Assembly (NCBI GenBank): GCA_963799845.1
Contig: CAWCYI010000004.1
Coordinates: 1,216,001 to 1,280,000 of the forward strand
DNA from: an uncultured Nitrososphaerota archaeon
GTDB lineage: Archaea > Thermoproteota > Nitrososphaeria > Nitrososphaerales > CADDZS01
Direction of reading: 5' to 3'
Length of the DNA stretch: 64,000 nt
Shown here: one piece after another, positions 16,955 through 20,059 of the stretch
Layout of the letters: each line of letters begins with the position of its first letter
Numbering within the stretch: the stretch's first letter is position 1
Notes under the pieces: generated by a model
What the model saw: the letters and a program-made list of their open reading frames with translations, nothing else
The model's database searches: none
What the model was told of the DNA's origin: nothing
Made by a program: the position numbers and the translations under genes

Positions 16955-17347
16955 TTACTGTTGTGAGATAAAATGGAGAGCCAAGTTGTGGCCTTCGTAA
17001 GCAATCGGTACGAGTATCATCGCGGTTCGCACTTGACCGCCAGATTTCGTCTTCCATGTTACTGAATTCGAAGATCCGACGTACTTCGTCATCGCGTTTT
17101 GATACGCGCTTACGAGAGTCTTCTGGCTTTCCTTCGAAACGAACGCGTCTGGAAAGTTCTTTTCCACACCAGCCCATTCAGCGGGAGAGGAATATCCTAG
17201 AAGTGAGGCAAATTTTTCATTGCAGACCTTATGCAGGTCGTCCAGGTAGATGTAGACCGATTGGTTGGAGTTCTCGAATACTGCACTTAGCTGATCGCGA
17301 ATCCCCTTGACGACTTGCTTCAAATGTTTCTCTGAGTTGCTACTCAT
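16955..17347 (-). CDS. Stand-alone PAS-domain protein
   Basis: VFENSNQSVYIY, CNEKFASLLGYS, KTKSGG motifs. Confidence 0.75.
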   Translation of the reverse strand: MSSNSEKHLKQVVKGIRDQLSAVFENSNQSVYIYLDDLHKVCNEKFASLLGYSSPAEWAGVEKNFPDAFVSKESQKTLVSAYQNAMTKYVGSSNSVTWKTKSGGQVRTAMILVPIAYEGHNLALHFISQQ

Positions 17348-17504
17348 GACTTTACTTCGGGTACGGCGAAATTAACAACTTGTTATAACCCTTCCTGCCT
17401 TTTGATTGCCCTGATCCTAAGATAGACTTCTTGCGAAAAATTGGTTTCAGATAAGCTTTTTCTGAATCCCCAGCGGGCATGAAAATCTTAGATTAGCCTC
17501 TCCC

Positions 17505-17693
17505 CTCCAGCAAGAGACAGCTGGAGTTGTGTTCATGGATCCCCGCAGCCTTCGAATCTCTTGTGCCTTGTGCATGTTCCCCAGCATGGCTGCACAGTCA
17601 TCGTCACAATTGACGATGATCGAAACGACCGGCCCGCTTGTCCATAATGGACGTACGGGAGATTGTCGGTCTGGGATCCATGACGCAAACAAC
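17505..17693 (+). ncRNA. Putative bridge/seek RNA of the IS110 element
   Basis: 5' hairpin CTCCAGC/GCTGGAG; 11-bp closing stem TCATGGATCCC/GGGATCCATGA; two internal loops matching target and donor; 9-bp hairpin TCATCGTCA/TGACGATGA; transcript ends approximate. Confidence 0.8.
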
Positions 17694-17725
17694 CAGTCAA
17701 ACAATAGGAGTATGAATCGAAACCA

Positions 17726-18955
17726 ATGACGAGAGTCGGAATAGACGCACATAAGAAGAGCTGCACCACGCAGGTCTTCGCGGACGGAGAAGAGTCACCC
17801 ATACAATCCTTCGTCTTCAAGACGAGCAGGGCAGGAGTCTCTGAGATGCTAGCAAAGATTCCGGACAAATCTGTATTTGTCATCGAATCTAGCACAACTG
17901 GAAAGGCGGTCACGAGAATGATTTCTTCTTTCGCATCAAACCAGCACGTGATTCACATGGTTGCGCCACCAGAGAAGAAAGCATCTGTGAAAACCGATAA
18001 GAGAGACTGCGAGCGTATCGTCAAGGAGGATGCACTGGGCTACTTGAGAAGGTGCTACGTTCCCTCACAGTACATAGAAGACATGCGCTTTCTTGTGACC
18101 CAACAGATAGAGATTGGCGCAAAGATATCGAGAGTAAAGAACCAGATCCAAGCTCTACTGGAGAGAAACATGGTCCAGAGCGAGTTCTCAGAATTCTCTG
18201 ACGTGTTCAGTAACGGAGGTCTTCAAAAGCTCGGAGAGATAGAGCTTCCAAAGCAAGACAGGCTGGCTCTCGCATTGCATCTTTCGGAGCTCAAGTTCTA
18301 TGCAACCCAGCATACGGAGGTTGAGACCGAGATTGCAAAGATGGCAGCCTCAGACGAAGACTGCCAGCTTCTGTTCAGTCACCCTGGCATCAATGCTTTC
18401 ACCGCAGTAGCCATCAAGGCAAGAATAGGAGACGCTTCAAGGTTCCCCACAAAGAAACATCTCTGCTCGTATGCCGGAGTCGTTCCAGGTGCTGACAACA
18501 GTGGAGAGCGTGAGTCCCACCACGAACACGTAAAGCACGGCGACGTCATATTGAAGTACGCTCTAACATGCGCAGTGAGTGGAGCCGTGAAAGCCAAGAC
18601 GGATTCTGCTGTCAAAAGAGTCTACCTGAAGCACATCAAGAGGGGGAAAGCTCCTCAGGAGGCTCAGGTTGATGCTGCAAGGAAACTCGCCTGCATTGTC
18701 TGGAAGATGCTTACATTCAAGCAGAGGTACGTCGAGGAGGACAAGTATCTGACAGCGAAGAAGATGAGGCAAACATCCTTCAATGCTCAAAGAGTCATCA
18801 AAGACGCGATACTACCAGAGAGCGTTACAGAGCTAGCCAAAAGCCTTTCATCGGACGTTAGCGTACTGGAGCAGTACTCAACGAATCTTGATCGTATGCT
18901 TGGTCGTCACAATCGGAGAAAAAAGGAAAATAGCAGGCAGACAGGAGTGACTTGA
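17726..18955 (+). CDS. IS110-family recombinase/transposase (DEDD RuvC-like plus Tnp domain)
   Basis: VGIDAHK, VIESS, KTDKRD, HPGI, SYAGVVP..DNSG (catalytic Ser), ARKL; SD-like AGGAG upstream. Confidence 0.95.
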   Translation: MTRVGIDAHKKSCTTQVFADGEESPIQSFVFKTSRAGVSEMLAKIPDKSVFVIESSTTGKAVTRMISSFASNQHVIHMVAPPEKKASVKTDKRDCERIVKEDALGYLRRCYVPSQYIEDMRFLVTQQIEIGAKISRVKNQIQALLERNMVQSEFSEFSDVFSNGGLQKLGEIELPKQDRLALALHLSELKFYATQHTEVETEIAKMAASDEDCQLLFSHPGINAFTAVAIKARIGDASRFPTKKHLCSYAGVVPGADNSGERESHHEHVKHGDVILKYALTCAVSGAVKAKTDSAVKRVYLKHIKRGKAPQEAQVDAARKLACIVWKMLTFKQRYVEEDKYLTAKKMRQTSFNAQRVIKDAILPESVTELAKSLSSDVSVLEQYSTNLDRMLGRHNRRKKENSRQTGVT

Positions 18956-19035
18956 TGATGTTTAATATTCCTTCTTCAATAGAAGATTTTCACGGGAGAA
19001 ACTCGGACTCTGGGTAGCGAGATAGAATGCTTTGG

Positions 19036-20059
19036 CTAAAAGACAGTTGAAGAGAAAAGCTCCAGGGATTTGTATTTCGGATAATCTAAAAACATGAGCT
19101 CGAAGCGCTGACACCCCAATTCGACGTACTTCTTTAGTTTCTCTCTGACTTCGTCGGGCGTCCCGATGATAGTCTTCTCTATGTCAAACACATAATCGGG
19201 CGAAGGGAGCTGGACAATCGATGATCCGAGAGCGCCTACAACATCCATCACTCTCTTTTTCTTTTCCCTTAATTCGTCATGGTTTTTGGCAATGAGCACA
19301 TGGGCATGAATGCTCCTCTTGATGCTGTCCGGCGTTCTCCCTTGCTTCTTGAGCTCTTGATTGAGAAATTCTGCCCTCTCCCTGTATTGCTCGTACGTAG
19401 GTTCCGCGCCGATGTCCCATTCGTCGGCAAGCTCTGCAGCTACGCGCAGGGTTCTCTTGCCCCATCCACCTACCATTAACGGAACCTTTTTGGAGGGCAC
19501 GGGGTTGTTGACAACATTGTCAACGCCGTAATATTTTCCTCTGTAGCTGAACTTTCGACCACTCATCATTCCACGTATTATCTCGATACCCTCCCTCATC
19601 ATATCGACCCTGACGGATGCAGGTCGAAAGTCGTATCCAAAGGCTTTGTACCTCGAGCTCGTACCATCCCGCGCCGTAACCAAGGATGAACCTGTTGTCT
19701 GACATCAACGCTAGGGACGAAGCCATCTTGGCTACCAGTGCTGGATTTCTGTAATTGTTGCAACAGACGTAAGTGCCGAGGTGAACTCTTGACGTTACTT
19801 GGGACAGGGCGCTGAGCGTCGTCCATACCTCAAATGTCATTCCGTTTTTGCCTAGCATGAAGTGATCAGGCGACCAGAGCGAATTGTAACCCAGTGATTC
19901 TGCCTCCCTCGCAAAACTCACTACACTGCCCCAATTGACTTCAGAGTTAAGCGGCAAATCATAGAGTCCCCAATATTCTTCGGCATTTGGCGTTCCAGTC
20001 GCATCCCCAGCGTAGGAGGGTACCACTACGCCGAACTCCGCTTCAACCCTTGTCATCAT
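19036..20059 (-). CDS. LLM-class flavin/F420-dependent oxidoreductase (frameshift near 19652)
   Basis: AESLGYNSLWSPDH, YRNPALVAK, GYGAGWYELE then YKAFGYDF in the next frame; one extra G. Confidence 0.9.

Follow-up and report, generated by a model that had tools for sequence, protein, structure and literature searches.

The stretch of DNA analysed here, 64,000 nucleotides (nt) from a contig of an uncultured Nitrososphaerota archaeon and referred to below as the window, contains at positions 17472-18998 of the forward strand a 1527-bp insertion sequence with the dinucleotide AG at both boundaries. Its recombinase gene, of the IS110 family, is preceded by 254 nt of non-coding sequence and followed by 43 nt. 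Bridge and seek RNA recombinases have so far been characterised in bacterial elements. We consider it highly probable that the window element is an intact member of the IS110 superfamily in a soil archaeon of the Nitrososphaerota, comprising both a bispecific guide RNA and the recombinase that this RNA would direct. The class of RNA-guided recombinases is already known; the element is a clear new, and unusually legible, example of it. Its features, together with the sequences flanking it, are as follows.

17462-17471, forward strand: left target flank, CTGAATCCCC, of which the final five nucleotides, TCCCC, together with the core AG make up the sequence of the loop-1 3' guide
17472-17473, forward strand: core dinucleotide AG, left copy; the opposite strand reads CT
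17472-17479, forward strand: left terminal extension AGCGGGCA, the donor half-site matched by the loop-2 5' guide
17480-17494, forward strand: left arm, 15 nt long, of the subterminal inverted repeat (TGAAAATCTTAGATT), with 87% complementarity to 18978-18992
17533-17683, forward strand: structured core of the putative bridge/seek RNA, with an outer stem of 17533-17544 paired with 17672-17683; 126 bits with covariance model R1
17545-17593, forward strand: target-binding loop (loop 1), closed by GCAGCC (17545-50) with GGCTGC (17588-93); 5' strand 17551-61 with guide CGAATCTCT, inner hairpin 17562-76, 3' strand 17577-87 with TCCCCAG
17597-17620, forward strand: extra hairpin between the loops, shared by the window element with no homologue other than its closest two, L019 and L023
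17626-17668, forward strand: donor-binding loop (loop 2), closed by CGAC with GTCG; 5' guide GCCCGCT 17632-38, inner hairpin 17639-53, 3' guide ACGGGAG 17655-61
17726-18955, forward strand: recombinase gene, 409 amino acids, IS110 family (DEDD RuvC-like and Tnp domains), assigned from Pfam, NCBIfam and a profile search
18978-18992, forward strand: right arm of the subterminal inverted repeat, AATAGAAGATTTTCA, complementary to the left arm
18993-18998, forward strand: right terminal extension CGGG and right copy of the core AG; ACGGGAG (18992-98) equals the loop-2 3' guide
18999-19008, forward strand: right target flank AAACTCGGAC, with 5 of 7 positions complementary to the loop-1 5' guide in the window copy

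The original prediction, made from this DNA alone, had singled out four short motifs in the 5' non-coding end as guides, and all four were confirmed at their coordinates, as was the GCAGCC/GGCTGC stem said to close loop 1. In that loop the 5' guide CGAATCTCT occupies 17553-61 and TCCCCAG, at 17578-84, is identical to the left flank and core at 17467-73. In loop 2, GCCCGCT is the reverse complement of AGCGGGC at the left end of the element (17472-78), and ACGGGAG is identical to its right end. The polarity is the same in both loops: each 5' guide is the complement of the top strand across the core and the right half of the site, and each 3' guide is identical to the left half plus the core. Chance occurrence was assessed quantitatively by shuffling the 236-nt interior of the left end 200,000 times at the mononucleotide level. 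Any one exact 7-mer was found in 1.4-1.9% of the shuffles, while neither the three exact 7-mers jointly nor all four motifs jointly occurred in any (0/200,000 in both cases).

The left end is also strongly structured. Its 254 nt fold with -91.3 kcal/mol, compared to -70.7 +/- 4.4 kcal/mol in shuffled sequences (z = -4.64, with 0/200 equally stable). As in other members of the IS110 superfamily, the non-coding end carries a structured RNA sequence with two internal guide loops. When 34 sequences were supplied to RNAalifold the consensus contained the outer stem, the closing stems of loops 1 and 2, a hairpin of 4-5 bp within loop 1 and a matching hairpin within loop 2. Pairing is maintained in 97.5% of cells, and 20 of 34 pairs show compensatory changes on both sides. 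None of 500 shuffles reached any of the five measures used, and slid controls were 29-40% paired.

Homologues for these comparisons were gathered at the protein level. The search yielded 161 relatives at E values of at most 1e-30, an alignment of 35 of which was used to scan metagenome contigs, giving 54 loci. Forty-four loci (including L019, from genome contigs) and the window made 45, of which the 38 with at least 200 nt upstream were aligned. After removal of L060, where the upstream region is unrelated, and merging of L030-L032, duplicates of one insertion, the covariation set numbered 34 non-redundant elements, 28 of them with an identifiable right end. The search of genome contigs gave L019 as the only relative, and among 401 genomes of the phylum, searched with the protein, there was a single distant match of 32% identity. 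The ends are conserved across the homologues, with AGCGGGyrTGAAAATCT on the left and GATTTTCAyGGG-AG on the right; TGAAAATCT within the left repeat arm and GATTTTCA within the right arm are kept, and the AG of the left junction is invariant in the aligned elements (34/34).

Against this constancy, the guide-bearing strands of loop 1 are hypervariable (1.6-1.7 bits, compared to 0.1-0.8 bits in the scaffold), and their variation follows the DNA into which each element is inserted. The 3' guide matches its own left flank at a mean of 4.09 of 7 positions and those of other elements at 1.99 (34 elements); corresponding figures for the 5' guide and the reverse complement of the right flank are 5.79 and 2.42 (28 elements). 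On neither side did any of 100,000 permutations attain the observed value, and pairings with the wrong side or the wrong strand scored 1.2-1.9 of 7. Covariation of guides and flanks had been set beforehand as the decisive check, and the outcome is strongly positive. Four elements outside the training alignment (L043, L027, L081 and L082) fit their right flanks at 6, 7, 5 and 5 of 7 positions, or 23/28. Loop 2 follows the ends of the element where these differ: ATGGGAG occurs in both the guide and the right end of L041 and L044, and in L073 the guide GCCTGCT stands opposite a left end AGCAGGC.

The closest relative, L019, has 82% protein identity, the same ends and the same loop 2 as the window element. 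Its loop 1, by contrast, reads CTTATGT...TTCGTTAG and lies between the flanks TTTCGTT-AG and AG-ACATAAGG, so that its guides fit flanks that are its own and different. A comparison of the window element with L019 and L023, at 82-85% protein identity, shows 126 columns out of 145 identical in the scaffold and only 4 out of 15 in the target guides. Judged from these alignments, the target guides have been naturally reprogrammed among close relatives, from which it may be inferred that the element is programmable.

Four near-identical copies of the element, differing at no more than 7 positions per 1527, are present in the host genome (4.6 Mb in 9 contigs). Two of these are identical, with the window copy 4 positions away from the pair; copy 4 has two substitutions and one inserted nucleotide, which throws the reading frame out near residue 383, towards the C-terminus. 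The open frame is full-length in 3 of the 4 copies, and the element appears to have been recently active in this genome. All four copies have the form AG...AG, and the likeness of their flanks is limited to some 8-10 nt per side:

copy 1: GAATCCCC-AG on the left, AG-AAACTCGGAC on the right
copy 2: GAATCCCC-AG on the left, AG-ACACTCGGAC on the right
copy 3: GAATCCCC-AG on the left, AG-CGATTCGGAC on the right
copy 4: GAATTCCC-AG on the left, AG-AGATTTGCAC on the right

The left flank is thus shared by three copies, with GAATTCCC in the fourth. On the right the four copies give the consensus AG-AGATTCG, to which the loop-1 5' guide is exactly complementary, a better agreement than the 7/9 match to the window copy's own right flank that had been claimed for it. 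The insertions are site-specific, lack terminal inverted repeats and have only a shared core at their two junctions, as in the IS110 superfamily at large.

The sites occupied are intergenic or repeat-associated. About 27 nt to the left of copy 2 (ctggtacctaattaggtgcGAATCCCC-AG, in the left flank C6:961167-961290) recur near 1746400 on the reverse strand of the same contig, C6, followed there by AGGCCCGC, and the 100 nt upstream of the two occurrences are diverged paralogues. Because the left flank of copy 2 recurs beside diverged paralogous sequence, the target seems to border on a further repeated sequence. There are three occurrences of the motif GAATCCCCAGAGGCCCG in the host genome, which prompted the idea of a transfer RNA (tRNA) 3' end as the target; it was dropped, ARAGORN having found no tRNA at the three GAATCCCCAGAGGCCCG sites or in the window. 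At position 17532, just 5' of the RNA outer stem, a T distinguishes the window copy from the other three and from the contigs of two soil runs, all of which have G.

As regards the protein, an intact IS110 recombinase of DEDD/Ser type, as originally proposed, is borne out by family models and by conserved residues. Residues 4-147 match Pfam PF01548 (DEDD_Tnp_IS110) with 36.2 bits (cut-off 29) and residues 213-291 match PF02371 (Transposase_20) with 60.2 bits (cut-off 21.3). The NCBIfam equivalog NF033542, 'IS110 family RNA-guided transposase', is matched with 174 bits, compared to a cut-off of 140. A profile of the 35 homologues, when run against the PDB, found the IS621 and ISCro4 transposase structures (E = 4e-8), with only the C-terminal domain aligning. 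Acidic residues are conserved among the homologues at D7 (34/35), E54 (34/35), D91 (33/35) and D94 (35/35), and S259 aligns with the serine of the YESG stretch of IS621; these five are presumably the catalytic residues.

The plasmid search returned 751 records, all with less than 60% identity and labelled only 'IS110 family transposase', hence carrying no subgroup information. The nearest of these relatives, L092 (NC_007959.1 88994-91837) of Nitrobacter hamburgensis, has 27.7% identity and several copies on its plasmid, with some 270 nt upstream and 110 nt downstream of the gene and a 7-nt inverted repeat, ATGAGAT / ATCTCAT, near its ends. Possible guide matches in IS110 order can be seen in L092.

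The archaeal origin of the DNA, also part of the original prediction, was upheld: protein relatives that carry a name come from Nitrososphaerota, Nitrososphaerales or Thaumarchaeota archaea, and a small-subunit ribosomal RNA fragment in the assembly scores best with the archaeal model (776 bits).

A mechanism can be proposed on this basis. The 5' non-coding end would be transcribed into a bispecific guide RNA, of the bridge RNA or seekRNA kind, whose two internal loops are parallel. The element would be excised as a circle, and the two donor guides would jointly read the junction CACGGG-AG-CGGGCA thereby created. The 409-residue DEDD/Ser recombinase, bound to the guide RNA, would exchange strands at the common AG/CT dinucleotide, and the circle would insert such that AG flanks both ends with no further duplication. 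Transcription, the circular intermediate, binding of RNA by the protein and catalysis are the steps that we infer.

A different account of the structured 5' end would make it a cis-regulatory leader of the recombinase messenger RNA, acting on translation or stability, with the matches to flanks and ends arising as by-products, for example of repeated protein-binding sites. The structure does lie directly upstream of the ribosome-binding region and start codon, no T-run terminator intervenes, and conservation of structure would in itself suit a leader equally well. Such a leader leaves unexplained, however, why two short segments should be hypervariable within a scaffold of 0.1-0.8 bits, and why these segments should vary with the flanks of the very element that carries them, with both side and strand correct, when permutations never do so and controls stay at background. 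We therefore regard a leader as very improbable. Slightly less so, though still improbable, is that the element is a decayed relic whose guides record past insertions and which no longer moves in the host genome. This would agree with the 1-nt insertion that disrupts the frame of copy 4 near residue 383, with a genome that no longer contains a perfect target and with contigs in which neither circle nor empty-site joints are seen. The remaining three copies nevertheless have full-length frames, the four differ at no more than 7 positions in 1527, and residues of catalytic type are intact. Moreover, the sites at which the element has inserted themselves carry 1-2 mismatches, so that imperfect sites are evidently used.

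Several observations weigh against the preferred interpretation of an intact, RNA-guided element. Each occupied site has 1-2 mismatches, the right side being matched at 5-6 of 7 positions, and no copy sits at a perfect target; in the genome the ideal 17-mer target has no site at up to 1 mismatch, 3 at up to 2 and 35 at up to 3. The covariation is weaker on the left flank than on the right, and five elements outside the training alignment (L081, L083, L082, L084 and L091) fit their left flanks at 4, 3, 2, 4 and 5 of 7 positions, or 18/35. RNAalifold further predicts a helix of CCC with GGG within the donor loop, where there is hardly any variation, and that on one side only; the donor loop may therefore take an alternative closed form, for or against which this variation does not speak. 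The region 17300-19200 gave by E value only a chance match in Rfam 15 (bxd_5, E = 2.5), and at gathering scores no Rfam 15 family was matched in the whole window. A PDB search with the single protein sequence gave no match, and the position of S259 is Ser in 28 of the 35 homologues and Thr in 7.

Sequencing runs bear on transcription and on the circle. Contigs of four runs were examined, out of eight that contain part of the stretch. One peat metatranscriptome run includes a 169-nt contig with exactly the sequence of 17534-17702, and a second RNA run contains a 198-nt contig inside the recombinase gene. Also to be set among the adverse points, the 169-nt contig has a depth of 3.4, its library possibly contains DNA, and its ends and strand are not readable. 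These low-depth contigs from one study are a hint only that the guide RNA is transcribed. Two DNA runs carry the element, and their contigs contain no circle-junction or empty-site joint, which is not evidence for absence; loose contig ends in these two runs are flanks of other copies. No conserved promoter for the RNA was found, the TATA-like TTTAATATT in the right end (18962-70) being kept in neither L019 nor L023.

The core of IS621 is CT, as is the strand opposite the AG of the window element. As in the IS621/IS110 group (PMC11208160), the recombinase combines DEDD and Tnp domains, a long left non-coding end lies upstream of the gene, and the RNA presents a target-binding loop followed by a donor-binding loop. 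That group has a longer 5' and a shorter 3' guide which overlap on the core, the corresponding lengths here being 9 and 7 nt, and the geometry of RNA and DNA in IS621 is that of the window element if the latter is read on the strand with the CT core (PMC11208160). The junction is, however, reversed in orientation relative to the genes, and the guide order is not that of IS621, the 5' guides here being reverse complements of the right halves (rule from PMC11208160 and PMC11187229). Subterminal repeats are described for the IS110 group as absent or only 2-3 bp long, whereas that of the window element has 15 nt, 10 of them perfect, and is set in by 8 nt at the left end and by the core and 4 nt at the right. 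The IS621 protein, too, is remote, aligning only in its C-terminal domain and only through the profile.

In its termini and guide order the element is closer to the IS1111 family, for which subterminal inverted repeats of 11-13 bp, terminal extensions of 7 + 3 bp and a downstream non-coding region are reported (PMC11187229). Like the members ISEc11, ISKpn4 and ISPa11, it has subterminal repeats with short asymmetric extensions, which measure 8 + 4 when the arms are taken as the perfect 10 bp and 7 + 3 when a single mismatched pair is counted with them, close to the reported values but not identical. As in those members, one short sequence is shared with no other duplication of the target, and the complement of the top strand precedes that of the bottom strand (PMC11187229). 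The seekRNA paper gives this order, with the segment complementary to the top strand first, for the IS1111 family and the reverse for the IS110-type ISEc21 (PMC11187229). The position of the guide RNA differs: almost without exception, IS1111 members have their long non-coding region downstream of the recombinase gene, and here it is upstream, as in the rare IS1111 exception ISMtsp17 (PMC11187229). The original prediction, which named IS621 bridge RNA and IS1111 seekRNA as precedents, is to be qualified accordingly: the termini and the order of the guides are of the type reported for IS1111 and not for IS621.

Judged by layout, the window element resembles IS1111 in its termini and guide polarity and IS110 in its upstream guide RNA. 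Given IS1111-like termini and guide order together with an upstream RNA, its circle form looks like that of an IS1111-type element with the junction on the other side of the guide RNA gene. It is conceivable, though we think it rather doubtful, that the Nitrososphaerota clade is a circularly permuted IS1111-type element whose junction, once downstream of the guide RNA gene, now lies upstream of it. If so, the clade would be a living intermediate in the interconversion of IS110 and IS1111 layouts by donor-loop reprogramming, as well as a ready-made, naturally retargeted RNA-guided recombinase native to archaea that are related to ammonia oxidisers and have no genetic tools. Since traits of both groups meet in it, the element can in any case serve to test how the IS110 layout relates to that of IS1111.

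Bacterial and archaeal genomes have already been mined for bridge RNAs on a large scale (PMC11208160; bioRxiv 10.64898/2026.10.21.760802): among ISfinder entries, they are predicted for 85.7% in IS110 and 93.0% in IS1111 (PMC11208160), and a 2026 preprint has modelled 32,190 of them (bioRxiv 10.64898/2026.10.21.760802). Vaysset et al. counted 662 archaeal IS110 recombinases, the general population to which the window element belongs, and inferred several transfers into archaea; in its accessible text their study treats the proteins, without the guide RNAs or targets of the archaeal elements (bioRxiv 10.1101/2024.06.21.599552). Our literature search found, in the accessible text of its sources, no archaeal bridge RNA described together with its targets, though supplementary ISfinder-wide tables may list such layouts. 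What the window element adds is an archaeal lineage in which target loop, donor loop, core and natural retargeting are all readable from sequence, with several independent insertion sites to back that reading. It is a candidate for genetic tools in Nitrososphaerota. It also supplies real archaeal guide RNAs for the link that has been proposed between IS110 recombinases and archaeal Nop5/C/D-box systems (bioRxiv 10.1101/2024.06.21.599552).

The distribution of the RNA was followed with the covariance model R1, built without the CCC/GGG helix of the donor loop. In the host genome R1 finds exactly the four copies. Among 150 other genomes of the same class it has matches in 8, comprising 7 of 17 in one family and 1 of 9 in another; none was found in the 80 genomes of the best-sampled family of the class. 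Other IS110-family genes in the host genome (L009-L014 and L016-L018) encode proteins 25-40% identical to that of the window and include two identical pairs, L010 with L011 and L012 with L013. No R1-type RNA lies next to L009, L010, L012 or L014; since these paralogous genes lack it, other types of guide RNA probably lie beside them.

A sub-clade of the relatives (L046, L048, L051, L053, L054 and L055, within L046-L055) sits in the coding sequence of another transposase gene, at the end of its rve integrase-core domain. The left flank there is ...GTCAACCAyCCCC-AG-ACCAAyGG; in L048:692-991, for example, Pfam rve is matched over positions 7-102 of 102. In 5 of these 6 elements the right junction is AA instead of AG, and the core in the 5' guide is TT. 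The IS110-family element ISEc21 likewise targets a conserved stretch of another transposase gene (PMC11187229), a likeness confined to L046-L055, unlike the sites of the window element.

On its right, the window element adjoins a luciferase-like monooxygenase gene, which is present as two overlapping frames on the reverse strand (19039-20059). The frame at 19523-20059 covers profile positions 3-112 and that at 19039-19683 covers positions 111-313. The split is a frameshift, due either to a pseudogene or to an assembly error.

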